Assembly (NCBI GenBank): GCA_021513695.1 | Contig: CP084166.1 | Coordinates: forward strand, 512,001 to 576,000 | From: Candidatus Heimdallarchaeum aukensis | GTDB lineage: Archaea > Asgardarchaeota > Heimdallarchaeia > Heimdallarchaeales > Heimdallarchaeaceae | Reading direction: 5' to 3' | DNA length: 64,000 nt | Shown: one piece after another, positions 35,961-64,000 of the stretch | How the letters are laid out: each line of letters starts with the position of its first letter | How positions within the stretch are numbered: position 1 is the stretch's first letter | Translations under genes and position numbers: made by a program | The notes under the pieces: generated by a model | Told to the model about the DNA's origin: nothing | The model's input: the letters and a program-made list of their open reading frames with translations, nothing else | The model's database searches: none

Positions 35961-35961
35961 A

Positions 35962-37321: not shown

Positions 37322-37639
37322 ACCATTTTTAATAGGATAAGTAAAATTACATCTTTTTTCCTTTTCCTGTTTTTTCCCATTCACTAAACTTATCTATTAG
37401 TTCGTCAATAGCATGTGTTATCTCTTCAGTGATTTTTTCAACAATAATTAATTTGTCATCTTCAATTCGAATAGACAAAATAGAACCGAGTTCAACCAAC
37501 CATAATTCAAGTTCATTAAGATCTTCAAAACCTAATTTTTCCTGTAAAGTAATTAAAGGTATTTTAGAATTATTAGATAGGACTTTGAATAATTTTTAGC
37601 TCTTTCTATTTCAATATCGCGAGAATCAAAATAGTTCAT
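37322..37639 (-). pseudogene. Duplicated 3' tail fragment of the 40618..43875 paralog (frameshifted)
   Basis: About 290 bp is near-identical to 40618..40906. It reads [22 protein letters not shown] and then, in another frame, ...GFEDLNELELWLVELGS.LSIRIEDDKLIIVEKITEEITHAIDELIDKFSEWEKTGKGKK. Its ATG overlaps the TGA of the upstream gene (ATGA). Confidence 0.5.
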
Positions 37640-43600: not shown

Positions 43601-43875
43601 CTGTAGCTTGAAGTTAAATTATGCTTATCAATTGAGCGATAATTATCATATTCTTTTCCATTCTCTGTTTTATTGTTATTAAATTTAGAAGCCTTTTCAT
43701 CTACATAATTATCTATTAGGTGAAAAGTTGGAGTAAGAAAAAGAAAAATAACTAAAGAAACAATAATTCTTTTATAGTTTGGAAATATATTGTTTAATAT
43801 TTTCATTTCTAGAACAAGTATATACATTACAATAAAAAAATAAAAGTTTTTCTTCACTATTTCTTTTCTTTTCAT
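40618..43875 (-). CDS. Receptor-like type-I membrane protein paralog (beta-helix + TSP3-like repeats + TM + long coiled-coil cytoplasmic region + conserved C-terminal module)
   Basis: Same domain order as 37636..40335. The TM helix is IVLSCLLSFLVIGSVTTTILLI. The C-terminus is ...AIDELIDKFSEWEKTGKGKKE. The true start may be the internal Met of MKILNNIF (signal-like). Confidence 0.65.
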   Translation of the reverse strand: MKRKEIVKKNFYFFIVMYILVLEMKILNNIFPNYKRIIVSLVIFLFLTPTFHLIDNYVDEKASKFNNNKTENGKEYDNYRSIDKHNLTSSYRQINHGSSCQKAIAERNNAKETRYIVHSPIEINSEEDFVKFGFPGSGTEADPYIIENYEVSTGDTEYLENSCGIVIRYVSSFVIIRNCFIQGYEVGISSETRAGGVIVENCTLLYNQYGVLVHQSGDSLIKNNYSANNSGFGILVSESSNVTIIKNTCITNGAGSIGVRDNKKIKIFYNNLEKTTNDWASCLWSSGNSEIVISDNLINGATSDGLYLERCNNVVISNNNIYNSTNFAISYGFEVSNSLIYNNLFCGTGLGGVRIGERGDYNIVFNNSFLKIQDNNEDYGTNTYWYSPTLLVGNLWEDWDGTTNFYSIYGNKIGDIFPRRVASVENDSDSDGMEDAWEIVYNLDDSKADSDGDGLSNLEEYQWMANPNFNDTDGDGLNDYDEVIFGGCIRDGDFDDDKLSDYEEVKIFHSFPYKKDSDSDGLTDYQEVIVFLTDPIDSDTDGDGLSDYEEIYAYHTDPTKNDTDDDKFNDYDEIIIYGSDPLNKLSNPRAKKIKIVLSCLLSFLVIGSVTTTILLIKKKQREKIIQLKNEYNKQFLEFNKFKEKIDEYLLQSYSPDNFKEWVNSAKQLDNIIGSYRSKFNLFKVIIGKKNIIEFEKVKREINDFIEKLSQIKTELERKITDEYILLLNKILEKKQQLLSDLQQINSYVQKNDYKKIDLDNYNKRIAKVFFEFKELSNEYLIYAKEIEKIDIRNALLSSKIYEIKNIDEQISKEELNAYINQIKIHKKQTFDEFLEIEKEIINQQDLNININYEKVKKLLEITDGFRDFFQSKLEILSKQITNEERKDLLEELQEIENKRQEVRDLIYLYPLILLDKKGEELRKEIDNLFVYSLKGKITESELYFKEFDEKLANWKENYSRVMNTETVGELSSNGIEQYNELKEKIEEKINYFDSRDVEIERAKEFFKVLSTTSEIPLFTLQEKLGFEDLNELELWLVELGSFLSIRIEDDKLIIVEKITEEITHAIDELIDKFSEWEKTGKGKKE

Positions 43876-44044: not shown

Positions 44045-46010
44045 TTACTTCTTTTTCCCCTTTCCTGTACGCTCCCACTCACTAAACTGTTTAAGCAGAT
44101 CATCTATAGCTTCAGTCATATCTTCTGCCACGAACTCACCCTCAAGTTGTATATCGAACATTACTTCTTCTCCTTCTATCTGATTTGGTAAATCTTTAGA
44201 ATAAGCATATAACCATAGTTTCAAGACCTCTTTGTCTTCAAAGTCTAACAAAGGAGAAAGCTTGGTTAAACTTATTTTATTATAAACAGAACTAACTTTC
44301 TTAAGTCTTTCAAGTCTCATATTATTATTCTCACTATCATTAAATATTTTAGCTAACTCACCTAATAATTGTTCATTTTGTTCTAATAGTTCTTGGACAA
44401 TAACCAATTTTTCAGTAGCTAAATCTTTAATATCAGACCAGAAAGAGTCAGAAGAAGCAAATTTAGTAAAAGCTTTATGATCAATAAAAGCTACAATGTA
44501 ATTTAGGGTTGATAATATCTCTTCATAGCTGATAATTAGAGGTTTGAACTCCTTATCAGACCAATTATAGACAATGTTAGTTAACATTTCTTTAGTGTAA
44601 TCAAACAAATTTTTATAATCAATAAATTCAATTAATGAAACTACTTTATCATGAAGAGAGGAGCTGATAAAAGAGGTTATTTTTTCAAAAATCTTGTTAA
44701 ATTGTTCTTGTTTATTAGTTTTTAATCTTTTGCTGTTAGAATGAACAAAAATTAACTTTTCAAGAAGATTACCTAACTTTTCAAAATAGTCTTTTATCTC
44801 CTCTGCAGAAGAAACGAAAGAAATTAATGAAGAAATTTCTGTAAAAGTTTCCTTATACTTTCCATCTAATTCAGATTGTAAATGAATTACTTTTTCAAAT
44901 TTTTCCTTTACTTTTATTCGCATTATTAATACATGAATGGAGAATGTTACAAGAATAACAAATATAGGAAGTATAGCAAAATAACCTATTTTTTCTACTT
45001 GAGACAAATAAATATTCTTTTTTACAGGATTTTTTCCATTTTCTACTTCCCAACCGTCAAGCATACCATCTCCATCAGTGTCATTGTCCAAGGGGTCAGT
45101 AGAATAGATATGAACTTCTTGACCATCAGTCAGTCCATCTCCGTCACTGTCACTGTCCAAGGGGTCGGTATTGTAAGTATTTATCTCTTCATAGTCATCA
45201 AGTCCATCGTCGTCTGTGTCATTATCTATGGGGTTAGTACCTATTTGATACTCTTCTAAATTGGTCAAACCATCATTATCAAAATCCTCTGTAGAGTCAT
45301 CAATATTTGTGTCCAAGCCATTATCTTCTTCCCATTTGACGGGTATATTATCCTGGTCTAGATCCACATACATAGGATAAGGATCAAAGTTATTAGCGGA
45401 ACCATCTATTGGATATACTCCTGTTCCATTCCAGTCATACCAATAGTTCCCTGTTGACCCAGAATAAAACTTATTGTTTGTTCCCTCATCATACGCTTGT
45501 GAAGAACCACCTAAATTATTTTTAATTATGATGTTTTCCATAAAACTATTATTAGAGTATAACGGAGTCTTATACCATAAGAATTACTATTAGCTATAGT
45601 TTTAGAGCTAAAAATATTGTAAGAACTATTAAGAATATATACACCAATATAGCTACTGTTTGCTATGGTGTTAGAGGTAAAAATGTTATAAAAACTATAG
45701 CCTAGTTATATATTGTAGATACCACCATTTGTTATAATATTATTTATAAAAATATTATTAGAACTAGAACCGAGACTAATACAACACCAATCATTATTTA
45801 TAATTGTATTAAAAATAAAGTTGTTATTAGAACTATAACCTATTCGTATACCGTAATAACTAACAGTAATATTATTGAAAAAGAATGTGTTATTAGAGCT
45901 ATATTGAAGATTTATACCACTGGTAATTATATTTGTTATTTTATTAGAAATAAATGTATTATTAAAACTAGTTTCAATCCAAATACCATAATTCTTATTA
46001 TTTCTTTAGT
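44045..46010 (-). pseudogene. Third receptor-like paralog, 5' beta-helix region decayed
   Basis: The ORF 44045..45541 encodes only the TSP3 + TM + cytoplasmic part (..[21 protein letters not shown]). The stretch 45541..~46010 is recognisably homologous at the DNA level to the beta-helix region of 37636..40335 but is riddled with stops. Confidence 0.5.
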
Positions 46011-47061: not shown

Positions 47062-48065
47062 TCAATAGACCTGGGTTACACTTTTGGGTACTAGAGAAAC
47101 ATAGGGGTGATTCATAAATTTTTCTCCAGGAGTAAGGAGGTTAAGAGACTGGTGAGGACGGCTAAAATTGTAGTATGAGCGGTAGAAGGAGAGGTCGGAG
47201 TTACAGTAGGTTAGTCCTAGTCTTTTCATCTCACGGATAATGGTTCCATGTAGTCTTTCTACTTTTCCACATGTTTCGGGGTGAAAAACTCTAGATCTTA
47301 TGTGCTTTATTCCCTCTGTTTGACACCAACGGGAGAAGGTACTTGTTCCCCCTCTAACGGAGTAGAATAGTGCTCCATTGTCTGTGAGAATAGACTCGGG
47401 GTATCCATATTTTTCTACTGCTTCTTCTAACAGACTTATTATCTGCTCTTTTTTCGGTGCGAAAGGGTGGAGTTTAGCTCCCAGGCAGAATCGTGAGTGG
47501 TCGTCTATTAGAGTTATGAGATAAAGGTGTTGTCCTTGTTCTTCTACCCAGAAAGGTCCTTTCACATCTATCTGCCAGAGTTCGTTAGGGGATGAGCGCT
47601 CAAAACTCTTGTATTGAGTAATGTTTCTCTTTTTTCTATTACTCCACAGAGGAAGACCTAACTCCCCTATTACTTTAACTACTGTGTTTCGCGATAGTGC
47701 TCTTCCTTCTTTCTTCAACAGATAAACTATCTTCTCCACGTTCATTCCTTGCTTTACTCTTAACTCCCTTATCCTCTCTCTTAACTCCTCATTCACTTTC
47801 CTGTGTATAGTTTTAGGTCTAGATGATCTATCCTTCCACCATTCTCCTTCAGGGTTCTCCTTAAACCTTTTCAACCACTTATATACAAACTTCCTACTCA
47901 CCATATACCTGTGAGCTACCTCTTTTATCTTCTCTCCTTCCAAAGCTTTTTTAACCACAATCTTTCTTAGTCTCTCTAGGTTACGTTTGGGTTTGTTCAT
48001 AATTCGTCACTTACCCTCGTAACCCACTTTCTATTTATTTGTTACCAACGTGGGTAGAGTAAACA
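47055..48065 (-). mobile_element. IS481-family-like insertion sequence flanked by 16-bp direct repeat ATCACAAAACCAACAA
   Basis: The direct repeat lies at 47039..47054 and 48066..48081. The ends begin TGTTCACTC / TGTTTACTC (inverted). A single rve-type transposase lies inside. Confidence 0.65.
47062..48000 (-). CDS. IS481-family DDE (rve integrase-core) transposase
   Basis: N-terminal HTH; WQIDVKGPF, LITLIDDHSRF, ILTDNGALF, HPETCGKVERLH and YNFSRPHQSL are seen. The protein is 312 aa. Confidence 0.75.
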   Translation of the reverse strand: MNKPKRNLERLRKIVVKKALEGEKIKEVAHRYMVSRKFVYKWLKRFKENPEGEWWKDRSSRPKTIHRKVNEELRERIRELRVKQGMNVEKIVYLLKKEGRALSRNTVVKVIGELGLPLWSNRKKRNITQYKSFERSSPNELWQIDVKGPFWVEEQGQHLYLITLIDDHSRFCLGAKLHPFAPKKEQIISLLEEAVEKYGYPESILTDNGALFYSVRGGTSTFSRWCQTEGIKHIRSRVFHPETCGKVERLHGTIIREMKRLGLTYCNSDLSFYRSYYNFSRPHQSLNLLTPGEKFMNHPYVSLVPKSVTQVY

Positions 48066-50723: not shown

Positions 50724-51700
50724 CTATACAGTCCGAAGGAGTAAAAGGTAGTTGTAACAGAGGAGAGAACTATAAAGAGTAGAAAGAATGGTGGAGGGTA
50801 AGTGATCAAGGATTGGGGGAAGAGAGAGTTTGAGGAGACCAAAGACGTGTTCAATACTACTACGATACTCGGGGTGATGATTATGGCGATAGAGACCAGG
50901 GTAGAGACGATGAGCTTGAACTATTGATCCGAGAGGAGGAGAGGGATAACGAGCATTACTTTTTGGGGGAATAACAGGGAAAAAGGAATGTTGTCTAAGA
51001 AGACCGACGATATTTTCTGTCCAGTTGGCACAGTCTCCATAAAATCTCAAGAGCGGTCTCAAGAGTGCAGAAGGAAGTTTCTGCCATAGTAAACCGAAGA
51101 CTTTACTATCGTGAGTGTTACTAGCAGAATGAGCTAAAGAGATTATAGCTCTGGAGGGTAAACCAACTATAAGGTGTATCTTCCAGAAAAGTTTAGTTTG
51201 GAGGTTTTCTTTAGTCCTCCTCTTGCCCACTTGAGAAAACGCCAAACAGAAGCTTGACGGATTTTAAACCCTGAACTATCCACCGCCATAGCTTTCAACC
51301 CTTTTTTTTTCACTATTTCCCCACCTAAGTTTATTATCCACCGCTCTAAAATTTTACTTTCTGTCGCTCTCCACACTGCATGAAAAGTAGATTTGGAAGG
51401 AATCTTCTTCATCCACCCCTCTTCTATCAAAAAATCGCATAGAGACAACTTTTCCTCTAACTTCCTCCAAGCAATTCCTTCTATTCTAGCAATGATCGCT
51501 AAAGCCAGTATCACCCACCTTTCTGCTATTCTTTTTCTCCCTCTCTTACTTTCTCTCGGTTCCTCTTTCACCAGTTTCTTAAGGAAAGGTTCATTAATGA
51601 TTATGAATTCTCTTGCTTTGTGGAGGTCTATGATCTGAAAGAAACTCATACTTCCGACATAAACCCCCACATTAATAAAAATTAATTTTTGGACATGCTT
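50695..51700 (-). mobile_element. IS5-family-like insertion sequence, copy 2 (apparently intact, orfA/orfB)
   Basis: There are 17-bp terminal inverted repeats AAGCATGTCCAAAAATT (50695..50711) and AATTTTTGGACATGCTT (51684..51700). OrfA is 51167..51670 (-). OrfB is 50724..51245 (-) in the -1 frame, overlapping by 79 nt. Confidence 0.65.
50724..51670 (-). CDS. IS5-family transposase OrfA + OrfB (requires -1 frameshift for fusion)
   Basis: AVDSSGF lies in OrfA. YGDCANW and ..EHVFGLLK.. lie in OrfB. The frameshift position is conserved in copy 1. Confidence 0.6.
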
Positions 51701-54283: not shown

Positions 54284-54640
54284 TTAGAGAAAAATTCGAT
54301 CGTAGATCTTCTCCGTACAGTAGTTTATTATGTTGGAAAAAATGATAAAAAAAGGTGCTGAAGTACTGTTAGAGAGAGTATGTATTTGTTCCATACTAAT
54401 AATTTTAATATCCAATTTATGCTGTAGAGAGAGATTACGAAACGAATCTTTAATATCAGTGTATATACGATCCTGAGAAGCTTTTTTCGAAATAACTAAC
54501 AGGTCAATATCGCTGGTTTCAGAAAAAGTTCCACTAGCATAGGATCCTCCCAGCAAAACGGAAACGATTTTTGAGCGAGAAGGAAGTTTTTCAATTTGAT
54601 TAGTAATTATTTTGATAAGTTCATCTTGTAGCTTTGCCAT
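54284..54640 (-). CDS. Minimal nucleotidyltransferase (MNT) domain protein
   Basis: LLGGSYASGTFSETSDIDLLV is a classic GS-x9-DxD nucleotidyltransferase motif. Confidence 0.55.
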   Translation of the reverse strand: MAKLQDELIKIITNQIEKLPSRSKIVSVLLGGSYASGTFSETSDIDLLVISKKASQDRIYTDIKDSFRNLSLQHKLDIKIISMEQIHTLSNSTSAPFFIIFSNIINYCTEKIYDRIFL

Positions 54641-54646
54641 AATCTT

Positions 54647-56077
54647 TCATCCTTTTTTGGAAAAAAGAAGATAATGTAGACACATCAGTTGTTCAACTAA
54701 TGATAGCGATCTAGTTAGAGAAGAGCAAAAAAGAACACTATATTGAAATTTAATATATGAACAATCCTTGTCTGGATTTATATATAGGGAGAATTTAGTG
54801 TTTGCTGTTTCATTTTCAAAGAGATCAGTTAAAAGTGTTCGATTGTAGTAAATCTTTGTATTTTGTCTATCAACAATCTCATTCTCATCCCACGGAGTAG
54901 CCATCCAACAGTAATGAAGGTATTCATCACCCAGTTTAATTACTGGAATATATTCATCAATATCTGGGGAGGAAGTTAGTTGACGTTCCACATAGCTCTT
55001 ACCATCATATAAACCCATGAAGAGATCATAATCATCAGAAGAGGTTAATTCTTTCTTTGTGTAAATAAAAATATACGAATTATCTTTGCAAGCAATCATA
55101 GATCTATCATAAAATCTTAATCTTTGGTCAAATTCTTTTATTACTTTTGTTTCAAAATAAGAAGCGTTGAATAATCGTGTTCTGAGTATTTTACCACTAT
55201 TAGAAAACAGACCAGGATCGTAGGAAAAAATATCACAATATTCATCTGTGAGGAACAAAGCAATTGGTAGATAATTATTTTCTGCTGTACCCAAAGAATA
55301 TAATTTCCAGCCTTCCACCTTCCATTTTACGGCAAGCAAGGGATAAGAAGAGTCGTAATCTAAATGATTTTCCCACAAAATAAAGACATTTTCACCTCTT
55401 TCCTTAAAATCGCCAGGATCATAGGTGGAATACGACCTTACTTCAGGGAATGTATTATTAAGAAAGAACCATGAATGATTTTTTTCTCGATAAATAGCGG
55501 GTATAGTGCCTTTTTCTTCAATATAACGATATAAATAGGCCATGGATAAGTTTCCTTCATCATTGTAGTACCAATTAAGTAATGATAACATAGTATCCAT
55601 ACGTAAATGAACGGGAAGTTCACGAAATGGCTCATATATTTCCCAAGCTCTTGTTCCTCTCAATTCCATAACTGAACTTCTGTAATCAAAAAATGAGTCA
55701 CGATAATAAAGATAGGTTATTGGTTTGTTTTGTACATTTAAAATAATGTTAACCTCAAGAAAGTCTAGAAATGTAGTTTTTATAATTGGAAAATAATCAA
55801 AATAAGATTCTTTTAGATTTAATTGGCCATAAACCGCACCAGGACAACTATTATTTGCACTTGTAATAACAAAGTGAATGTAACTATCATTTTCAACAAC
55901 AAAATCAGTGTAAGTTCCATTTGCAAATAAGTAATTAGGATACAGATAGGAATGTGTCTTTTTACCATCTGAATTATTGTTCGGTGGTTTAGGATAAAGA
56001 ATAACAATAAAAGAAATAGTTAGTCCTATAATGATTAAACTGGTTATAGCTATTCCAATTATTATTTTTTTCTTCAT
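54647..56077 (-). CDS. Secreted / membrane-anchored hypothetical protein
   Basis: An N-terminal signal anchor KIIIGIAITSLIIIGLTISFIVIL is seen. No catalytic motif was recognised. Confidence 0.35.
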   Translation of the reverse strand: MKKKIIIGIAITSLIIIGLTISFIVILYPKPPNNNSDGKKTHSYLYPNYLFANGTYTDFVVENDSYIHFVITSANNSCPGAVYGQLNLKESYFDYFPIIKTTFLDFLEVNIILNVQNKPITYLYYRDSFFDYRSSVMELRGTRAWEIYEPFRELPVHLRMDTMLSLLNWYYNDEGNLSMAYLYRYIEEKGTIPAIYREKNHSWFFLNNTFPEVRSYSTYDPGDFKERGENVFILWENHLDYDSSYPLLAVKWKVEGWKLYSLGTAENNYLPIALFLTDEYCDIFSYDPGLFSNSGKILRTRLFNASYFETKVIKEFDQRLRFYDRSMIACKDNSYIFIYTKKELTSSDDYDLFMGLYDGKSYVERQLTSSPDIDEYIPVIKLGDEYLHYCWMATPWDENEIVDRQNTKIYYNRTLLTDLFENETANTKFSLYINPDKDCSYIKFQYSVLFCSSLTRSLSLVEQLMCLHYLLFSKKG

Positions 56078-56221: not shown

Positions 56222-56557
56222 TTAATAATAGGAACCGATATTTCTACCACTAGGATCATTCTCGCATGAATAATCAAGACATGCTCCGAAATCTTGATAC
56301 GTTAAAGGATGAGCAGGATCAAGATGATAGTGCATACGTGAAGCTAAATAAGCAGTTACAGCTACTTGAGGTGCAGACATGCTGGTTCCAGTAGCAATAA
56401 TATTTTCCACCACTCCATCATTATCCAAATCGCTCTTCATTTCCACTTTAAATGATGGAGATACACAATCAACAGTCGCTTCACTCAACCCATGATCTTG
56501 CCAAAACAGACTACCAACATACGCACCATCAGTGTTTGGAGAATAGGTGAAAGACAT
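56222..56557 (-). pseudogene. Subtilisin-like (peptidase S8) C-terminal fragment
   Basis: GTSMSAPQVAVTAYL is the S8 catalytic-Ser motif. No upstream Asp/His regions are present. The reading frame is cut at 56557. Confidence 0.55.
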
Positions 56558-56562
56558 TCTAC

Positions 56563-57276
56563 ATGTTTCATGACTTTCAAGTTCAAGATGGTATTAACCT
56601 TTACAATTCCAATGGTTTTATTATAAAAAATAATACCATTTCCTATGGCGGGTATGGACTATTTGTATCTGAATCTTCACACGGGGTATATACTAATAAT
56701 ACTTGTATAGAAAATAGCAAATATGGTGTTTATATAAAATATGGATACAACATTTCTATCAATGAAAACAACTGCAGCGCTAATGATCAAGGTATAAATC
56801 TTTACAACTCTTCTACAATTTATATCCACAATAATAGCATAAGTAAAAACACTATTGGACTGACTTTTGATCTCTCTAATCATTCAATCATCACTTTTAA
56901 TTCATTTGAGAAGAATGAACAATATGCAATAATTATGGATTCTTCATCTTCTTCTAATCTCATCCATCATAATACGTTTATTGACAACAACTTGCAAGGA
57001 ACATCTCAAGCTTGTGATAATGGTCATAATAATACTTGGTATGACCAATCAACAAAAACTGGTAATTATTGGTCTGATAGAAAAGGGATAGGAAAATATT
57101 ACATAGATGGTAATAGTAAATCGTATGATAAATACCCCCTAAAAAATCTCCCTCAACAATGTGCTGAAAAAACTTCTATTGATTTTCTCATCATTCTGAT
57201 CTCTTTTCTCTCTACAGTTATTTTGTCTTATGTCATAAGAAACAAGTATGCATTCAGACAATTACGATTTAGATAG
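56563..57276 (+). CDS. Truncated beta-helix paralog (PbH1 repeats + TM, no signal peptide)
   Basis: NNTISYGGYGLFVSESSHGVYTNNTCIENSKYGVYI..., TGNYWSDRKGIGKYYIDGNSKSYDKYPL and a C-terminal TM helix are seen. It is homologous to the ectodomains of the 37636/40618 family but starts abruptly at 56563. Confidence 0.4.
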   Translation: MFHDFQVQDGINLYNSNGFIIKNNTISYGGYGLFVSESSHGVYTNNTCIENSKYGVYIKYGYNISINENNCSANDQGINLYNSSTIYIHNNSISKNTIGLTFDLSNHSIITFNSFEKNEQYAIIMDSSSSSNLIHHNTFIDNNLQGTSQACDNGHNNTWYDQSTKTGNYWSDRKGIGKYYIDGNSKSYDKYPLKNLPQQCAEKTSIDFLIILISFLSTVILSYVIRNKYAFRQLRFR

Positions 57277-57567: not shown

Positions 57568-57840
57568 ATGATTAAGAATATGATTAAGATGGCGAAGAAT
57601 ATAGCAGTCTCTGATGAACTCTACAAATTGCTGAAACGGTTAAAACGTCCTGGTGAAAGTTTTACTGATGTGATTTTAAGATCAATAAAACATTCAACCT
57701 CTATAATGGATATTGCAGGTAAAAAAACAATACCCCTAGAAGAGTGGGAAAAACTCAAAAAATTATTTGAAGCGAAAGAAATAGAGGATTACAAGTGTAA
57801 AAGAGATTTGCTTGAGAAGGCTAATAATGTATCTTATTGA
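57568..57840 (+). CDS. Small antitoxin-like protein (VapB-type pattern), orphan
   Basis: MAKNIAVSDELYKLLKRLKRPGESFTDVILRSI resembles archaeal ribbon/antitoxin N-termini. It is divergent from the PIN remnant. Confidence 0.3.
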   Translation: MIKNMIKMAKNIAVSDELYKLLKRLKRPGESFTDVILRSIKHSTSIMDIAGKKTIPLEEWEKLKKLFEAKEIEDYKCKRDLLEKANNVSY

Positions 57841-57916: not shown

Positions 57917-58981
57917 TTAATTATCATAGAATCGTAAATAGAAATAACTGCTAGGATCACCATCTTCAAGTACAGGAACAGAAGTGTAGGCATCAACATA
58001 ATCTTTTATTGTGTCAAAAACATTTTCTAAGTCAAGGTCAAAATTTATCCATTCACAACTGGAGCTATCCCAGTATTGTTTTATAAAATAACCTGTAAGA
58101 GCTCCATGGTAGTTGCTTCCATCCGGCATATAATTAAAGAATTTAGCTTGAGTAGTTTCATTGTATCTACACGCTGCAATCATAAGTACATTCTCTGAGG
58201 CTTGAATAGACATTATTTCATTCATTCCTCCAGAAAAGCATGAATCAATAAAAACAAGTAATTTTGATTCATAAGTCGTAGTTGAATCAGAACAAGCAAA
58301 TTTATCAAAAAGTATCTTTAAATTATAGTCATAAAGAAATTCATCTATTCCATAAGCTTGAACACTATGCTCTTCTTCATTATAACTATATCCATGCCCC
58401 GAGTAAATAAAGAATATTAAGTCATTTGGATCAGAATTTTCAACAACATTAGCTGTAACATCGTAAATATTTTGTAGTGTTGCTTGATGATAATCAAAGT
58501 TAAAGATACCACCTCCAGGACCTGATGTGTCAGGTAAATCAAAAAGACTTTCTCGATTTACAGATTCTTCGTGGCCAAGTAGGTGAACATTCATAGAAAA
58601 AGAAACAATATCATAAGTTTCTGGTTGTTGATCAAATAATTCAAAAAGAGCTGAAGCCCACATACACCATAAAATTGCATCTTCCCACGCACCAGCACAA
58701 TATTGTCCAGTTTGATCTTGACCAATACCGATAATAATAAACTCTGCCTTAATTTTATTGTCAGTGCCACTAGGATAGTCTATTACTGGAATAGTTGGTC
58801 CATTAACTCCTCCCCCATCACCGGTACCAGGATCAAGTTCAAAACCTTTTGTCAATAAGACTTCTTGAAAGAGTGTATTATTTATACTAGAACATAGTAA
58901 TGTCGATAAAATAAATAACGTAATAAAAATATTTTTATTAATTTTATTCACAGACCTATTAAAAAAATAACAACATCCCAT
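57917..58981 (-). CDS. Caspase-like cysteine peptidase (clan CD, His-Gly...Cys dyad), secreted
   Basis: IFFIYSGHGYSY (catalytic His context) and VFIDSCFSGGM (catalytic Cys context; compare legumain/metacaspase D[AS]C.SG) are seen, with an N-terminal signal anchor. Confidence 0.55.
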   Translation of the reverse strand: MGCCYFFNRSVNKINKNIFITLFILSTLLCSSINNTLFQEVLLTKGFELDPGTGDGGGVNGPTIPVIDYPSGTDNKIKAEFIIIGIGQDQTGQYCAGAWEDAILWCMWASALFELFDQQPETYDIVSFSMNVHLLGHEESVNRESLFDLPDTSGPGGGIFNFDYHQATLQNIYDVTANVVENSDPNDLIFFIYSGHGYSYNEEEHSVQAYGIDEFLYDYNLKILFDKFACSDSTTTYESKLLVFIDSCFSGGMNEIMSIQASENVLMIAACRYNETTQAKFFNYMPDGSNYHGALTGYFIKQYWDSSSCEWINFDLDLENVFDTIKDYVDAYTSVPVLEDGDPSSYFYLRFYDN

Positions 58982-59042
58982 ATTTAAATATTTCGGATAA
59001 TAGGAAACAATATTTATTAATGTCTATAAAGCACATACCATA

Positions 59043-61805
59043 ATGTTGATAGTAAAACAGTATAGAACCAAAATAGTTTTTATTATTGTAGTCTATTCTT
59101 TATTTATTAGTTCAAGCGTTAATTTATCTCAAGAAAAGATATATGCCTATGAAGTTCAAAAAGATCATAATAATCTAAAAAAAATTGAACAGAATAGCAG
59201 TTTTTCTATTTATAATAGTTCTAAATACAGAGTATTATGGAAATTAACCATTCCATCACCATATTATGGAGATATTTCATTTATTGATTTAACAGATGAT
59301 AATAAACTAGATTTACTAATTGGAAAGCCTGATGAAGGATTATATGCTATAAATGGATTTAATGGTTCTATTATTTGGACAAAAAATTACTCTTCCAATA
59401 GTTGGTGGTTTCCTTATGTCAAGTGTTATGGAGCAAATTTTTTGGACATTGACTCTGATAATGAACTTGAGATCATTTTTAGTGTTGCTAATAATCGTAC
59501 TATTAATGCTTTAGAAAAAAATTCTACAGATATTTGGTCATATTATTGTAATGATGGTAATGGTAATACTGTTTTGGTTGATACAAACAATGATGGTTAT
59601 AAAGAACTTCTTTTTGGTTTTTCTGGAGGAATAAAAACTCTTTCTCCTTTTAACAGAACTGTTCTGTGGAGCTATGAAAACGATCTTCTTTCTTCTGGAG
59701 AATCATATCTGACTATAGCAGATTTAAACAACGATGGATTTGATGATGTAATTGATGCTTCATCTTTTGGTAATCTGATTGCAATTAATGGAAAAACACA
59801 TACACTTCTATGGGAAAGAACTTTACCTAAAAAAAATAAAGATAAAGAATTAAGACATCTTTCTAGGCCTGTTGCTGGAGATATGGACGGAGATGGTCAA
59901 TTAGAAGTGTTTGTAAGTGCAGGAAAAGAATATAAGAATATTTTTTTCACACTTGATGGAAAAACAGGAAAAACAATTTGGAAGGTTGAAGGAGAAAAAT
60001 TTAGTCGTGACACAGTTCTTGGAGATTTAAATGGAGATAATATTTTAGATATCGTTTCAACAACTACTGATGGTAAAATAATTGTGCTTGATGGTTTAAA
60101 AGGAAAAACTTTATGGACATTTCAATTTGGCAAATCATTGAACAATCCAGATAGCTATGGATTACCTCTTTCTTGCCCTGTTTTAGGTGACCTTAATAAT
60201 GATAACAGATTAGATGTTTTAATAGGCTCATGTGATGGTAAATATTATATCCTTGACGGATTAACAGGTAACCCTTTGTTTATTTTTGACAATCCTTCAA
60301 TATCTGAAGGACATAGAAAAACAGTAGATATTATTGATACAGGTGCTATCGTAGATTTAGACGGAGACGGAGAAAATGAAGTTGTTCTTGTCTGGACAGG
60401 TTTAGGTGTCTACGCTTACGATTTTGAGGAGGAATTAGCAGGAAAAAGAATTTTCTGGGGGACAAAGAGAGGAAATTCTTTGCAATGGGGAAATGCTTTA
60501 GCATTAGATCAAGATAATGACAGATTATCAGATTACAGTGAAAAATTATTTGGGACAGATAAAACGAATCCTGATACTGATGGAGATGGATTACCTGATG
60601 GTTATGAACTCAGTTACTTAAATACATCACCAACTCTATATGATACTGATAATAATGGAATTAGCGATGGTGAAGAAGACTTTGATGGTGACGGATTATT
60701 AAATGAACAAGAATTTAGACGCTTTACTGACCCATTTATATTTGATTCTGATTTTGATGGAATAAGAGATAAGCTTGACCTTTTTCCTTATTTAAATGAC
60801 TATATCGTTTATTCTAAAATTCTTGGAATTGTTTCTTTGTTTAGTTTTTCATTGTATAGTTACAAAAACTACAGGAAAAAAGGTTTAGTTTATCGAATTA
60901 TAAACTACGCTTACCTTAAAACAAAAAGGTTCCTTAAAAAATGTAAAAACTTTTTTAAAAAAACATCAGACGAAGTATTCTACTTTCTTCTCGTCAATAA
61001 AGGGTTAACAATAGCAAAAACCATTCTTGCCTTTATTCTTTCTAATATACTAATTATTCCTTTTTTCATTCCAGCTTGGAGAGAAAGAATGTATCTTAAG
61101 AATACTGAAGCACATATCACAATTTCTGATACAGGATTCCATAATATGGGATACATTGATCATTCGGGAGAATGTGTAGGAAAATACTGGCTTAGAACAG
61201 AAGATGGAGTATTCTATGCAATAAGTGGATATAAAGGAAACTTACCATACGGAGATTTCTATATTCGTGGTGAAGGATTTACTTATGATTCTGGAGATTT
61301 GGGGTTGAACTATCTTTTTGAAATGTCTCCTGAAGATGTGAAAGAAATAAAAGCAGCTCTTAGAAGACCTTGGTTATTGTTACTAGGATTAGTAGCTGTA
61401 AGCTTAGTGTTTTACTTAACATTCTACATTCTACAAAAGCTCATAAGCAAAATAACAGAACAGTCGTTTAAAGGAACACCATTTGAAGAGATGATTGCCA
61501 GTTTCCTCGAAGAAGTAAAGAAAATTACTTTTAGGAAACAGGAAAGTTTTGCAATGCAAGGATTATGGTTTGATCTAATAGAATACTACTGGGACAAAGG
61601 GTTAAGTAAATACGTCGACATTGATAAAAAACAATTAGTTCAGAGTAAAGGAGCACAAAAATATTTCATCAAAGACGATATTCAAGTTAAAGATGTTATT
61701 ATATACCTTGTTCTGTCTGATCCAGAAGCTCAAAAGACTAAGTTACCTATCATCATCAGGACCAATAGATTAAAAAAATCTAAACTGGAAAAAATAGATA
61801 ATTAA
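59043..61805 (+). CDS. Integrin-alpha-like membrane protein: FG-GAP beta-propeller repeats + TSP3-like Ca-binding repeats + TM helices + cytoplasmic domain
   Basis: At least 6 FG-GAP-like units are seen (DLNNDGFDDVID, GDMDGDGQLEVFV, GDLNGDNILDIV, GDLNNDNRLDVLIG, DLDGDGENEVVLV, DTNNDGYKELLFG). They are followed by DQDNDRLSDYSE, DTDGDGLPDGYE and DTDNNGISDGEEDFDGDGLLNEQE, then by three hydrophobic helices. Confidence 0.65.
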   Translation: MLIVKQYRTKIVFIIVVYSLFISSSVNLSQEKIYAYEVQKDHNNLKKIEQNSSFSIYNSSKYRVLWKLTIPSPYYGDISFIDLTDDNKLDLLIGKPDEGLYAINGFNGSIIWTKNYSSNSWWFPYVKCYGANFLDIDSDNELEIIFSVANNRTINALEKNSTDIWSYYCNDGNGNTVLVDTNNDGYKELLFGFSGGIKTLSPFNRTVLWSYENDLLSSGESYLTIADLNNDGFDDVIDASSFGNLIAINGKTHTLLWERTLPKKNKDKELRHLSRPVAGDMDGDGQLEVFVSAGKEYKNIFFTLDGKTGKTIWKVEGEKFSRDTVLGDLNGDNILDIVSTTTDGKIIVLDGLKGKTLWTFQFGKSLNNPDSYGLPLSCPVLGDLNNDNRLDVLIGSCDGKYYILDGLTGNPLFIFDNPSISEGHRKTVDIIDTGAIVDLDGDGENEVVLVWTGLGVYAYDFEEELAGKRIFWGTKRGNSLQWGNALALDQDNDRLSDYSEKLFGTDKTNPDTDGDGLPDGYELSYLNTSPTLYDTDNNGISDGEEDFDGDGLLNEQEFRRFTDPFIFDSDFDGIRDKLDLFPYLNDYIVYSKILGIVSLFSFSLYSYKNYRKKGLVYRIINYAYLKTKRFLKKCKNFFKKTSDEVFYFLLVNKGLTIAKTILAFILSNILIIPFFIPAWRERMYLKNTEAHITISDTGFHNMGYIDHSGECVGKYWLRTEDGVFYAISGYKGNLPYGDFYIRGEGFTYDSGDLGLNYLFEMSPEDVKEIKAALRRPWLLLLGLVAVSLVFYLTFYILQKLISKITEQSFKGTPFEEMIASFLEEVKKITFRKQESFAMQGLWFDLIEYYWDKGLSKYVDIDKKQLVQSKGAQKYFIKDDIQVKDVIIYLVLSDPEAQKTKLPIIIRTNRLKKSKLEKIDN

Positions 61806-61816
61806 TAAAGCATTTT

Positions 61817-62299
61817 TTATTTTGTTCGTAGTAATCTTGAAAGATGATAACCACAGCTTACAGGTAGTATTGGATGCTTTTTTCCGCTGATTGATATTGA
61901 AATATTTTTTATTATTTTTATTTCAGAATAATGACGCCAACCTTTACTTAAAACAAGAGGGTAGTATGATTTCTTAATATTTTTTGAACAATATTCTTCA
62001 ACTATAGTTTTTACTACTTTTGAACCATTTTCTAGTTTTTCAATGACTTCTTTAGCTTTTGCACTTTTGTTTTTCAATTCAGCAATTATAATATACAAAC
62101 AATGATTAGTCTCAACAATAATAATACAATCTGATGATTTTTCCTTAATTAACGAGTCCCCATCTAATATTATATATTCTTTATCAATATCAATTTTTAG
62201 TTCACAGTTTCTTTCATAACATTTCTTTCTTGAATAGTCCGAATAAAATTGGCTAACAGTTTGAAAAAAAGTCATAGAAAATCCCATTGAAATAATCAT
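61817..62299 (-). CDS. Hypothetical protein
   Basis: ORF only. Confidence 0.3.
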   Translation of the reverse strand: MIISMGFSMTFFQTVSQFYSDYSRKKCYERNCELKIDIDKEYIILDGDSLIKEKSSDCIIIVETNHCLYIIIAELKNKSAKAKEVIEKLENGSKVVKTIVEEYCSKNIKKSYYPLVLSKGWRHYSEIKIIKNISISISGKKHPILPVSCGYHLSRLLRTK

Positions 62300-62967
62300 T
62301 CTAGTTCTTTTTTTAGTTTAAAAATTTCTTCATGGTATCTCTTTTCCTTTTCTTACTGATATTAATAGAGTTATTATAAGCTATAAACAAAACTGTTATA
62401 ATAAAAGATTATTAGAAATTATAAAATTAATGTGAGTACAAAGTTGTTTTCATTATCAAAACATACTCGAAAAACGCTTAAATTTGACACCTATTACAAT
62501 TATTAAAACAATACCAAAAAATGAGATTGTCCCAATCACATACGAAGGATACATTTATTCCCATATAGAATGACTGCTTTCCCCATAGATCCAATTTTAA
62601 ACACTACTTTTATTATCGTTTAAACTTGGGATATTCTGATTCTAGTGCATATTCTTATGCAAGATATAAAGCATAGTACTAACATAAAGACCAAATTTCT
62701 CTGAAAAATGATTAATGCAAATATATTTGGTTGCTATATTAGTAAAATAACAATACCACAAAGATGTTTTTTAATTAAAGATTGAAGAAACAGGTAGAGT
62801 ACAATGAATCTTGTACTAAATAAGGTCAAATTAACACCTGTTATTCATCCTTTACAAAAAGGACAATCCTGTTCGTTAACAAATCTATAACTATATGTCA
62901 AAAATGATATATAGATGTTTAAAATAATGAATATTTGATAGAAAAGTATGTATTTTGTTGATAAAAA

Positions 62968-64000
62968 ATGAGCAATAATAAACATACTACAATCGCATTA
63001 ATAATAGTCATATTGTCATTAGCTCTTGTTTTTATTAAACCAACAGGAGCTGGTTGGGTAGAATGGGAAGGGAAAGTGTATAATGAATGGAATAATGGAG
63101 TAAGTGGAGCAATAGTAAAACTAAAACAGAATAATGTTGTTGTTAAAACAACAACCACAGATAGTAATGGGGAATATTCTCTCATATACTATACTTCTAG
63201 CTATGCTACATACAAAATTACAGTGACTAAGGAGGATTATAATAGTCAAACAAAGACTGTTCCCAAGACTTCCCTTGGAGAACCCTGGGTTGTAGATTTT
63301 AATATTCGCTATGTTATGAAATATGCTGTGATCGTGGGAATAGAAGATTATGCTTATCTTAATGATTTACAGTATACAGAAAATGATGCAGATGCTTGGT
63401 ACGACTTCTTATGTGATACATCTTTAGATTTCGATGAAGTGGATCTATATAAAGGTAGTAATGCATATGAATCCGCCATCAAAAACGCTTTAGAAAATAT
63501 GGTAAATATAGCTGATAAAGGTGACATTATTGCATTTATTTTCTCAGGGCATGGTTATAAAAAAAGTAGTACTGAACATGCCCTTTCTATGTGGGATGCT
63601 GATGGTAATGGTAACACAGGTTACTTATATGATTCAGAACTAGCAACTATTTTAACTAGTTCAGAAGCTGAAAGAATATTTCTATTTTTTGACTGTTGTT
63701 ACAGCTATGGAATGCAAGAGGAGTTGGCAGAGATAGGAAGCAAAGATCATATCCTTCTTACTAGTTCTTGTGATAAAAATGAAATTTCCTATTATGACAA
63801 AGCAAATGAAAAGAGTTGTTGGACGCAAAGTTTTTTAGTAGAATCATGGATTAATAATAATGAGCCAGAAGATCCTGTAATAGATGTTTTCAACGATGCA
63901 ATAATTTATTTCAGAGCCCATATAACTAATGGAGATGATTATTACTCAACGGATCAGAATCCGCAATTGTGGAACCCTTATGGAAACAATTTTCGATTAA
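62968..64000 (+). CDS. Caspase/metacaspase-like peptidase (clan CD) with N-terminal signal anchor and carboxypeptidase-regulatory-like beta domain; 3'-partial (runs off window)
   Basis: Translated manually from ATG 62968; no stop occurs before the window end. MSNNKHTTIALIIVILSLALVFI, then VKLKQNNVVVKTTTTDSNGEYSL, then IAFIFSGHGYKK and FLFFDCCYSYGM (His/Cys dyad contexts). Confidence 0.55.
   Translation, partial: MSNNKHTTIALIIVILSLALVFIKPTGAGWVEWEGKVYNEWNNGVSGAIVKLKQNNVVVKTTTTDSNGEYSLIYYTSSYATYKITVTKEDYNSQTKTVPKTSLGEPWVVDFNIRYVMKYAVIVGIEDYAYLNDLQYTENDADAWYDFLCDTSLDFDEVDLYKGSNAYESAIKNALENMVNIADKGDIIAFIFSGHGYKKSSTEHALSMWDADGNGNTGYLYDSELATILTSSEAERIFLFFDCCYSYGMQEELAEIGSKDHILLTSSCDKNEISYYDKANEKSCWTQSFLVESWINNNEPEDPVIDVFNDAIIYFRAHITNGDDYYSTDQNPQLWNPYGNNFRL

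Follow-up and report, generated by a model that had tools for sequence, protein, structure and literature searches.

Does this locus encode one surface module, in which an integrin-like receptor is processed by two proteases, or something else? A first-pass annotation of the window, by which we mean the whole stretch of 64,000 nucleotides that was analysed, had proposed the former: a membrane protein with FG-GAP blades, flanked by two secreted caspase-like peptidases. The three open reading frames and their domains are real and lie where they had been placed, as ORF calls and Pfam agree: the peptidase P1 (57917..58981, minus strand, 354 aa as read), the propeller protein P2 (59043..61805, plus strand, 920 aa) and the peptidase P3 (62968..>64000, plus strand), of whose 352 aa the last 8 lie beyond the window, the full-length protein being taken from locus L001. 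The two peptidase genes are on opposite strands, as described, but only P1 directly adjoins P2; between P2 and P3 there are a 160-aa ORF, P4 (61817..62299, minus strand), and a 668-nt spacer. The source is Ca. Heimdallarchaeum aukensis, of which one protein matches P2 with 100% identity, and not, as had been supposed, a member of the Lokiarchaeia. What we observe are domain identities, an eight-bladed fold, conserved catalytic residues and two conserved gene pairings, and on balance we think it probable that the locus holds two separate, analogous cassettes, each consisting of an exported Arg/Lys-type cysteine peptidase and a dedicated, anchored surface protein.

Both peptidases belong to clan CD, family C14. 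The Pfam family Peptidase_C14 matches P1 with 39.8 bits (5.2e-10) and P3 with 57.1 bits (cut-off for both 21.4), and the His and Cys residues align to the metacaspase dyad. The catalytic residues of P1, H196 and C248, align to SGHG and DSCHSGG of AtMC4 (6w8s), with a score that falls against the C139A mutant (6w8r), and are kept in four orthologues; H195 and C244 of P3 align to GSU0716. In an alignment of the P3 family (A2) positions D140, G194, G196, D242 and C244 are invariant and H195 is found in at least 90% of members, P0084 having SGKG in place of SGHG. The same SGKG is read at L016:520-1638, which is outside both A2 and a joint alignment of the P1 and P3 families (A3). In A3, from which P0084 was left out, the His is invariant together with the other P1 positions D101, D246 and C248; the Cys is invariant in both alignments. 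A PDB search with a profile made from the joint alignment had metacaspases and GSU0716 as its only matches (1.5e-14 to 7e-9). Of the earlier label, caspase/legumain-type, the caspase half (C14) holds and the legumain half (C13) falls, by profile and by Foldseek alike: P1 has an overlapping C13 match in Pfam, but it is weaker (30.9 bits), and no C13 chain appeared in the joint-profile search of the PDB (E <= 0.1) or among the top 50 Foldseek matches.

The N-terminus of P1 resembles a signal peptide; the protein also has a conserved GFELDPGTGDGGG linker, and its caspase-fold domain covers approximately aa 76-340. The AF2 model is of moderate confidence only (core pLDDT 60-82, mean 59.8), and its best 35 Foldseek matches in the PDB are all of family C14, so that model and structure search agree on a predicted caspase-haemoglobinase fold. 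Export had been predicted for both peptidases, and hydropathy and conservation support it: each has an N-terminal basic and hydrophobic segment that is kept in homologues. We thus classify P1, from its sequence, as a putatively exported family C14 peptidase of the metacaspase/orthocaspase type. P3 is likewise an exported C14 peptidase, whose gene comes first in a conserved cassette of two, and it is this enzyme that carries the carboxypeptidase-regulatory-like beta-sandwich noted before, at its N-terminus (CarboxypepD_reg, 35.7 bits, cut-off 32.3). In P1, D101 falls on the Asp of the 'NDA' motif of metacaspases and D246 precedes the catalytic Cys by two residues; in the TbMCA2 and Yca1 structures these positions line the S1 pocket. 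The alignment therefore predicts an acidic S1 pocket with Arg/Lys-type specificity for both P1 and P3.

The closest known systems for the two enzymes are the metacaspases and orthocaspases (C14B; Yca1, AtMC4, TbMCA2, GSU0716), with which they share the caspase-haemoglobinase fold, the dyad of SGHG His and D-x-C Cys, and the two acidic S1 residues. They differ from these in their export signals and apparently extracellular action, in the extra N-terminal sandwich of P3, and in that each is paired with the gene of a specific anchored surface protein; identity to the solved metacaspases is only 11-17%.

The protein between them is built in layers. At its N-terminus P2 has a hydrophobic segment, an anchor or a signal (aa 8-28), and then a linker (aa 31-60); both are encoded by 59043..59222 (plus strand), and hydropathy picks out the segment. 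In the model the N-terminus is a helix (aa 3-24) followed by a disordered stretch, and the linker is poorly conserved, with 17-23% identity to P0002. Next comes the ectodomain (59223..60482, plus strand), which by motif, model and Pfam is an eight-bladed FG-GAP/PQQ-like beta-propeller. Pfam finds FG-GAP_3 in four stretches (52.3 bits, cut-off 26.9, 8.8e-14), PQQ_2 (41.8 bits, cut-off 27.6), FG-GAP (9.1e-8) and, also above cut-off, the FAM234 propeller. A calcium-loop motif, D-x-[DN]-x-D-[GN]-x-x-[DE], occurs once in each of the eight blades, at aa 82, 135, 180, 227, 280, 328, 383 and 438. The model gives the propeller 32 strands and a closing strand, with pLDDT ~90 over aa 60-480. The FG-GAP units do therefore build a propeller, as had been suggested, and its calcium-binding blades, previously counted as at least six, number eight by motif and model. 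Foldseek matches the model to BamB and Bap1, with a TM-score on target of 0.73-0.77 for BamB, and the family profile matches YxaL (1.6e-49), 3hxj (6e-33) and Bap1 (7e-30) in the PDB. Pfam scores above gathering and the closed modelled fold thus place P2 in the supercluster of FG-GAP/VCBS and PQQ-like beta-propellers.

The propeller is followed by a putative stalk of calcium-binding repeats of the TSP3 type (60483..60797, plus strand). TSP3-like repeats had been noted in the first-pass annotation. Four copies of D-x-D-x-D-G-x-x-D are visible there by regular expression, but in Pfam they give a single TSP3_bac match below cut-off (18.1 against 25 bits). The TSP3 regions of the NCBIfam models CglD and MtsD also match below cut-off (3.9e-9 and 1e-4), and homologues of P2 carry PF18884.

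Beyond the stalk, hydropathy, charge and model helices define a membrane module (60798..61448, plus strand). Its three TM helices, placed by hydropathy and model at approximately 588-608 (TM1), 655-677 (TM2) and 776-798 (TM3), bear out the three that had been proposed and come after the N-terminal anchor. TM1 and TM2 are joined by a basic cytoplasmic helix of ~42 aa with a net charge of +11, TM2 and TM3 by an outside loop of ~95 aa with a small beta domain that resembles, in a weak phmmer match, a repeat of a T9SS-secreted bacterial protein. Because three spans place this loop outside, the single cytoplasmic region of ~250 aa described earlier does not exist; the cytoplasmic parts are the ~42 aa and ~118 aa. 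The latter is a helical tail (aa 803-920; 61449..61802, plus strand), an orphan with 76% identity that is one of the better conserved parts of P2. The whole C-terminal module is 71-88% identical to the orthologue of the H. endolithica group, compared with 56% for the propeller. No Pfam family matches the tail, and a phmmer search of 1.84 billion representatives with the C-terminal module returned no more than an 83-aa fragment and a single weak match to a repeat. This orphan, well-conserved membrane and cytoplasmic module on a propeller protein appears to be new. Since the propeller is held by three membrane helices and these continue into a conserved cytoplasmic tail, P2 may well be a surface receptor or adhesin.

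The link between P1 and P2 is supported by their recurrence as a divergent pair in three Heimdallarchaeaceae lineages and three different genomic contexts: H. aukensis itself, the H. endolithica group (L002, L005, L006, L021) and a JGI MAG (L003, L004). Only P1 and P2 are kept across the three; every flanking gene differs. The two genes share an intergenic region of 61 bp (58982..59042, strandless), in which an alignment of four loci reveals a conserved TATA-like box, TTTATTAA, some 25 nt before the ATG of P2, and this region is a likely shared promoter or control region. The lineages are few and closely related (L002 and L006 have 96% DNA identity, L003 ~75%), so recent common ancestry may explain part of the conservation. 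When further examples of the pair were sought, 5.8 billion proteins yielded two clusters and a scan of metagenome contigs a single contig, which belongs to the L002 population; beside the more distant P2 homologues P0007, P0008 and P0012 there is no C14 neighbour. Both genes look dispensable because some orthologues are damaged: that of P1 in L003/L004 has a single 1-nt deletion, with His and Cys retained, and that of P2 is frameshifted in a T-run of the closed H. endolithica genome.

P3 has a different partner. A gene for a NosD-like beta-helix protein starts 16 nt past its stop codon, just outside the window, and orthologues of this protein at other loci have a C-terminal TM anchor. A P3-type C14 gene is followed by a NosD-like gene in all ten pairs, from eight lineages and ~13 loci (L001, L008, L010/L011, L012/L013, L014, L015, L016 twice, L017, L018), and none of the ~13 loci has an FG-GAP gene. 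The pairs keep a gap of 16-90 nt at a protein identity of 36-45% and in unrelated contexts, and the pair has been tandemly duplicated once as a whole; the bacterial relative of P3 is without a NosD neighbour. P4, which lies between the cassettes, belongs to neither of them, and no counterpart was found at the orthologous loci L002, L003 and L006. Profilin was tried as an identity for it and rejected, the sole support being a sub-threshold Pfam match (E 0.033, 14.7 bits) and PDB and NCBIfam giving nothing; a weak PADLOC match to PDC-M47B (6.5e-5) was also seen.

In the two-cassette explanation that we prefer, cassette A would consist of P1 and P2, transcribed divergently from the shared 61-bp control region, P2 acting as a calcium-binding surface receptor or adhesin and P1 as an exported peptidase of the metacaspase/orthocaspase type. 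Cassette B would consist of P3 and the TM-anchored NosD-like beta-helix surface protein. Each peptidase could act extracellularly on its neighbour, cleaving after Arg/Lys for maturation, activation or shedding, or alternatively on whatever the neighbour binds; in cassette A such proteolysis could couple to the cytoplasmic tail of P2. Some form of this, in which the peptidase processes its partner or the partner's ligands, probably takes place. Relatives offer precedents: bacterial proteins that unite a C25 gingipain (clan CD), CarboxypepD_reg and an FG-GAP propeller in a single chain, and related propellers that are fused to FHA or protein kinase domains. If the partners are indeed processed, the cassettes would offer a simple, testable system of extracellular limited proteolysis by caspase-fold enzymes in the archaea closest to eukaryotes, with a bearing on how such proteases were used before the eukaryotic cell-death pathways. 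Each protein alone belongs to a known family, and NCBI annotates them as 'caspase family protein' and 'FG-GAP-like repeat-containing protein'. Two things appear to be new: the presence of the two peptidases in two different conserved cassettes, and the way in which, in each of these, a metacaspase-type enzyme that is exported is coupled to a single, specific surface protein anchored in the membrane.

The same genes could also serve nutrition, P1 and P3 being digestive enzymes and the propeller and beta-helix proteins tethers or substrate-binding adhesins, as in gingipains. No signalling or partner processing is needed for this, and single bacterial chains that join a C25 gingipain, CarboxypepD_reg and FG-GAP with T9SS export (P0034, P0063, P0070) resemble the locus in having a clan CD peptidase, the regulatory sandwich and the propeller at the cell surface. 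They differ from it in being C25 rather than C14, one polypeptide rather than separate genes, and bacterial, having a T9SS sorting domain where the locus relies on TM anchors. Further FG-GAP relatives carry a C1 or S8 peptidase as a fusion partner; the island around the locus also contains a subtilase fragment and many surface proteins. However, in P2 the orphan membrane and cytoplasmic module shows stronger conservation than the ectodomain, something that is not required of a passive tether, and C14 enzymes usually carry out limited proteolysis, not bulk digestion. The strict pairing of one peptidase family with one partner family also suggests dedicated rather than general substrates. We consider a digestive role fairly unlikely.

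A stronger form of the two-cassette explanation, which we think unlikely, would make partner-specific extracellular processing by metacaspase-like enzymes a general way of treating TM-anchored surface proteins in Heimdallarchaeaceae, one peptidase family serving propeller receptors and another beta-helix proteins. In its signalling version P1 would cleave P2 in the ectodomain or near the membrane, and the module of three TM helices and cytoplasmic tail would sense the cut, an archaeal form of regulated ectodomain proteolysis. Alternatively the enzymes could be transpeptidases like legumain/GPI8 and act at the partner's C-terminal TM anchor, either freeing the protein there or anchoring it anew. 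If either version were true, surface signalling or sorting by caspase-fold limited proteolysis would exist in the closest known archaeal relatives of eukaryotes. A C-terminal sorting signal recognised by the peptidase, one part of this proposal, has a low probability. The NosD-like partners do share a conserved motif, D-x-YPL followed by a TM segment and a basic tail, which is presumably the normal end of the beta-helix domain. A signal common to both partners was rejected: DLFPYL of P2 bears no more than a loose resemblance to the motif, which is missing altogether from the distant homologues of P2, where the TM anchor is a plain one.

Adjacency could also be a matter of place, genes for exported proteins accumulating in a flexible island while the genomes compared are a short distance apart. 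The cassettes do adjoin within a variable, surface-protein-rich island of the H. aukensis chromosome. From 37 to 64 kb the window contains IS elements, fragmentary genes, orphan parts of toxin-antitoxin systems and several genes for surface proteins, and scans of 54-64 kb with Rfam and for repeats gave no matches. The restriction of the P1-P2 pair to three related lineages and the frameshifts in both its genes also fit a mere neighbourhood. Such an explanation does not readily account for the survival of P1 and P2 alone among flanks that are all different, and still less for ten of ten P3 pairs at such identities and spacing, in unrelated contexts, with duplication of the pair as a unit. Chance adjacency therefore seems to us quite unlikely.

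This brings us back to the single integrin module. The three genes are real, as are their domains, P1 and P2 form a conserved pair, and in the family-profile search the FG-GAP blades show distant homology to integrin alpha-V (8e-15). Liu et al. 2021 (cited in PMC9258230 and PMC9197732) moreover reported 'integrin repeat' ESPs from Asgard archaea. However, integrin alpha is defined by a seven-bladed FG-GAP beta-propeller (Chouhan et al. 2011, PMC3192720), and P2 has eight blades, no thigh or calf domains, no GFFKR motif and no beta-subunit-like gene nearby. A Pfam scan of P2 at E <= 0.1 found no integrin leg families, the sequence after TM1 is KNYRKKG and not of the GFFKR type, and VWA and integrin-beta families are absent from the 29 window ORFs scanned and from the gene calls of the orthologous loci. 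Like integrin alpha, P2 does have blades of the FG-GAP type whose calcium loops read D-x-D-x-D-G, and a membrane-anchored ectodomain with a cytoplasmic tail, but it has the calcium motif in all eight blades, three TM spans and a putative TSP3-type stalk instead of legs; the homology to alpha-V is at the level of blades, over about two of them, and the top structural matches do not include integrin alpha. The closest structures, YxaL (7eq5, Bacillus), 3hxj (Methanococcus maripaludis), Bap1 (6mlt, a Vibrio cholerae biofilm adhesin) and BamB, are prokaryotic eight-bladed PQQ-like/FG-GAP propellers, as P2 is. Beyond these P2 has a calcium loop per blade, the putative TSP3-type stalk, three TM helices, the orphan tail and a dedicated C14 neighbour, which our data record for none of the four.

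The 'eukaryotic signature' had been claimed as well, but beyond the genus the relatives of P2 are ordinary prokaryotic and metagenomic FG-GAP proteins. Most of the 77 matches are metagenomic proteins without a source name, and those with one are bacterial (Planctomycetota, Zixibacteria, Acidobacteria, Eisenbacteria) or from Heimdallarchaeia. By sequence and model, then, the propeller shares a broad blade superfamily with integrin alpha and is classed as neither an integrin nor an ESP, which removes an unsupported claim of an integrin in Asgard archaea and leaves a propeller of the ordinary prokaryotic eight-bladed type. Two proteases serving one receptor fare no better, since the conserved partner of P3 is NosD-like in ten of ten pairs and never an FG-GAP protein. 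Given the eight blades, the prokaryotic relatives and this separate partner, a single module of this kind is very improbable.

An intracellular role of the caspase homologues in programmed cell death, toxin-antitoxin function or anti-virus defence is barely credible: P1 and a VapB-like antitoxin gene are neighbours in tail-to-tail orientation, the orthocaspase MaOC1 cleaves an antitoxin (PMC7935541) and the PADLOC 'caspase' model matches the peptidases (1.9e-9 and 2.8e-14), but both enzymes have conserved predicted export signals, the VapB gene is missing from the orthologous loci L002, L003 and L006, and PADLOC recognised a generic caspase domain only, with no system partner found, so that a link through this antitoxin gene was rejected.

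A last detail concerns the start of P1. The four-locus alignment of the intergenic region and a direct read both show the TATA-like box abutting the P1 ATG, and the true start of P1 is probably the GTG at 58951.

The genes that the first-pass annotation had read as one surface module, an integrin-like protein flanked by two secreted peptidases, belong to two conserved pairings, in each of which a metacaspase-type peptidase with an apparent export signal accompanies an anchored, beta-rich surface protein of one particular kind. ORF calls place all three genes where they had been reported: P1, a peptidase gene, at 57917..58981 on the minus strand (354 aa); P2, the propeller gene, at 59043..61805 on the plus strand (920 aa); and P3, the second peptidase gene, starting at 62968 on the plus strand and running off the window end. 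A Logan contig that matches the window exactly from position 57666 onward gives the full 352 aa of P3. In Pfam, P1 and P3 match Peptidase_C14 with 39.8 and 57.1 bits against a curated cut-off of 21.4, and P3 also carries a CarboxypepD_reg sandwich (35.7 bits, cut-off 32.3). P2 matches FG-GAP_3 (8.8e-14, four stretches) as well as the PQQ_2 and FAM234 propeller families, its TSP3_bac match staying under the cut-off; the NCBI product names are 'FG-GAP-like repeat-containing protein' for P2 and 'caspase family protein' for P3. All three thus belong to known families; what appears to be new is the paired organisation of the peptidases with surface proteins, and the orphan module of P2. The window is Heimdallarchaeial and not Lokiarchaeial as had been supposed, P2 being 100% identical to a Ca. 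Heimdallarchaeum aukensis protein.

The proposed link between P1 and P2 survives a synteny check: the divergent pair is kept in three lineages with different surroundings each time. In H. aukensis the setting is an IS-rich island, in the H. endolithica group (the closed genome CP084167.1, our L006, and contigs L002, L005, L007 and L021) the surrounding genes are glycine-cleavage genes and an RtcB-intein, and in a JGI MAG (contigs L003 and L004) they are MFS and EamA genes. A TTTATTAA box is conserved in the intergenic region, ∼25 nt 5' of the P2 start. The breadth is narrow: DNA identity at these loci is 96% for L002 against L006 and ∼75% for L003, which leaves three related lineages, and no further P1 relatives appeared in a 5.8-billion-protein collection or a metagenome contig scan. 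Such narrowness, together with signs of dispensability, counts against over-reading the pair. The P1 orthologue of the JGI MAG has a 1-nt deletion and its P2 orthologue stops directly past the first membrane span, while a T6-versus-T5 run within the third span shifts the reading frame of the P2 orthologue in the closed H. endolithica genome (L006:∼7528-7562 vs L002:∼10446). The same split is present in an Illumina-based Logan assembly, and the difference is either slipped-strand variation or decay. No second C14 gene is present at the orthologous P1-P2 loci, and no C14 gene adjoins the more remote P2 homologues at the loci examined.

P3 belongs to the other pairing. All its relatives with visible flanks are followed on the same strand, after a gap of 16-90 nt, by a gene for a 453-587-aa protein with a signal peptide, a NosD/beta-helix domain, a C-terminal TM anchor and a basic tail; in H. 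aukensis this gene starts 16 nt past P3, just outside the window end. The pairing holds in 10 of 10 cases (H. aukensis itself, L001, then L008, L010/L011, L012/L013, L014, L015, two tandem pairs in L016, L017 and L018), at identities of 36-45% and in unrelated contexts, and no FG-GAP gene lies near any of the ten. A single module with two proteases is therefore not what the comparison reveals. A bacterial relative of P3 occurs without a NosD-like partner. In the Heimdallarchaeial MAG L016 (520-7485) the whole C14 + NosD-like cassette is present in two tandem copies, the pair being duplicated as one unit. We found no description in the literature of cassettes of C14 peptidases and surface proteins in Asgard archaea.

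The stretch of the window from 37 to 64 kb is a flexible island, marked as rich in mobile elements by two minus-strand transposase genes (47062..48000, an rve integrase with HTH domains, and 50724..51245, DDE_Tnp_1). It also holds three large NosD/TSP3 surface-protein genes, an orphan VapB-like gene, an MNT-like nucleotidyltransferase gene and two 3' fragments without their 5' parts. Specifically, a subtilase (S8) fragment with the GTSMSAP serine motif (56222..56557, minus strand) and a NosD-like fragment with a C-terminal TM anchor (56563..57276, plus strand) join at one breakpoint (56557/56563), apparently the scar of a rearrangement or of a partial duplication, and over its first 75 nt the NosD fragment has 94.7% identity to the gene that follows P3. 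Given the fragments, the mobile elements and this identity, the adjacency of the P1-P2 and P3 cassettes is most simply a feature of the island.

Both peptidases are indeed of clan CD, since Peptidase_C14 scores above cut-off and their His and Cys fall on metacaspase motifs. Residues 166-265 of P1 align with Arabidopsis metacaspase-4, H196 on SGHG and C248 on DSCHSGG, with a lower score against the C139A mutant entry of that enzyme, and P3 aligns in a similar way with Geobacter GSU0716. D101, H196, D246 and C248 (P1 numbering) are invariant in the joint alignment of both families; C244 is invariant across the P3 family, so that it, and not C243, is the nucleophile of P3. In the PDB the joint profile retrieves only metacaspases (1.5e-14 to 1e-10) and GSU0716, with no match to caspases, legumains or gingipains. 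A moderately confident P1 model (mean pLDDT 59.8, core 60-82) has C14 enzymes as its best 35 Foldseek matches, GSU0716 and Yca1 leading. P1 and P3 share just 27.6% identity with each other. We take the two conserved Asp to be the acidic S1 pocket of metacaspases, as in the TbMCA2 and Yca1 structures, and specificity for Arg/Lys is on this basis a prediction. The N-termini of P1 and P3 are basic, then hydrophobic, a pattern kept in homologues and closing with ...NVSA|F in P3 relatives, and both proteins are therefore probably exported. The true start of P1 is probably the GTG at 58951, because a TATA-like box directly adjoins the annotated ATG and orthologues start nine codons downstream of it. 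Two members of the P3 family (L016:520-1638 and P0084, L010:7001-8110) have SGKG, with Lys for the catalytic His and the Cys retained; each still has its paired NosD-like gene, and they may be pseudo-peptidases.

P2 contains eight regularly spaced units, each with one D-x-[DN]-x-D-[GN]-x-x-[DE] loop (at aa 82, 135, 180, 227, 280, 328, 383 and 438). An AlphaFold2 model from 32 homologues, with pLDDT ∼90 across aa 60-480, folds them into eight groups of four strands, 32 in all, plus a closing strand, bearing out the propeller as an 8-bladed one. The reading of P2 as an integrin-like eukaryotic signature protein (ESP) is a different matter. 'Integrin repeat' ESPs are reported in Asgard archaea (Liu et al., 2021, as cited in PMC9258230 and PMC9197732), and FG-GAP-type propellers and integrins have a common blade superfamily (Pereira and Lupas, PMC8023676), in which a profile match to integrin alpha-V also places P2. 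However, integrin propellers are by definition 7-bladed (Chouhan et al., PMC3192720), a type to which P2 does not belong, and that match reaches just 8e-15 over about two blades, against 1.6e-49 for YxaL, 6e-33 for the Methanococcus 3hxj propeller and 7e-30 for Bap1; the family profile also finds the designed Bagel and Cake propellers. With the P2 sequence alone, BamB is the sole PDB match and no integrin chain appears at E ≤ 1, while the top Foldseek matches of the model are BamB, Bap1, YxaL and PQQ dehydrogenases. The integrin/ESP reading is thus unsupported. The H. aukensis genome paper mentions neither caspases, integrins nor FG-GAP proteins.

Past the 8-bladed propeller, P2 continues with four TSP3-type calcium motifs (aa 481-585), a first membrane span (aa ∼588-608), a basic helix of net charge +11, a second span (aa 655-677), a ∼95-aa loop with a small beta domain, a third span (aa 776-798) and a helical tail of ∼118 aa. 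Three spans predict the loop outside and the tail inside, in agreement with a weak likeness of the loop to a repeat of a T9SS-secreted bacterial protein. The C-terminal 335 aa are an orphan: no Pfam family was found, and among 1.84 billion representative proteins the sole match was an 83-aa fragment. The P2 orthologues of H. aukensis and the H. endolithica group nevertheless share 71-88% identity in this part, against 56% in the propeller (76% versus 58% by tblastn).

Two observations point to P2 having a receptor-like role: this module, which spans the membrane and reaches into the cytoplasm, is strongly conserved, and related propellers serve FHA or kinase proteins as their extracellular domains. 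Its distant relatives (24-30% identity) are plain single-pass metagenomic and bacterial proteins of propeller, TSP3 and TM anchor, some of which also carry an FHA or kinase domain, or a C25, C1 or S8 peptidase. One, with FHA and propeller (L026/L027:2289-13530), shares its operon with genes for a large VWA protein, a PEGA/TPR protein, a PP2C phosphatase and a Ser/Thr kinase, a transmembrane signalling cluster with a P2-type propeller. For the peptidases, the strict one-to-one pairing of families, the shared 61-bp control region of P1 and P2, the operon-like spacing of P3 and its partner, and bacterial single chains joining a clan CD peptidase, CarboxypepD_reg and an FG-GAP propeller argue for a dedicated relationship. 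We infer that P1 and P3 would each act extracellularly on the partner, or on material that the partner binds.

Several neighbours deserve brief comment. A VapB-type antitoxin gene (57568..57840, plus strand; PF02697, 7.7e-12) lies tail-to-tail with P1, with no toxin gene beside it, and is absent at orthologous P1-P2 loci. The 160-aa ORF at 61817..62299 (minus strand) has a D...E-x-K pattern (SDCIIIVE...AELK), suggesting a PD-(D/E)xK nuclease-like protein, and a weak PADLOC match (PDC-M47B, 6.5e-5); a sub-threshold Profilin match (E 0.033) appears spurious. The MNT-like nucleotidyltransferase (54284..54640, minus strand; PF01909, PADLOC PDC-S09) has no visible HEPN partner and adjoins a gene for a 476-aa membrane-anchored protein without a family match (54647..56077, minus strand). 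Three minus-strand genes encode TSP3-repeat proteins (37636..40335, 40618..43875 and 44045..45541), a paralogous family with a common C-terminal domain ending ...FSEWE[RK][KT]GKGKK[KE]; the first two (899 and 1085 aa) have NosD/beta-helix matches as well and are probably exported. Adjoining these surface-protein genes is a radical SAM/SPASM protein (35890..37284, plus strand) whose N-terminal PqqD-like domain gives it the architecture of a RiPP maturase.
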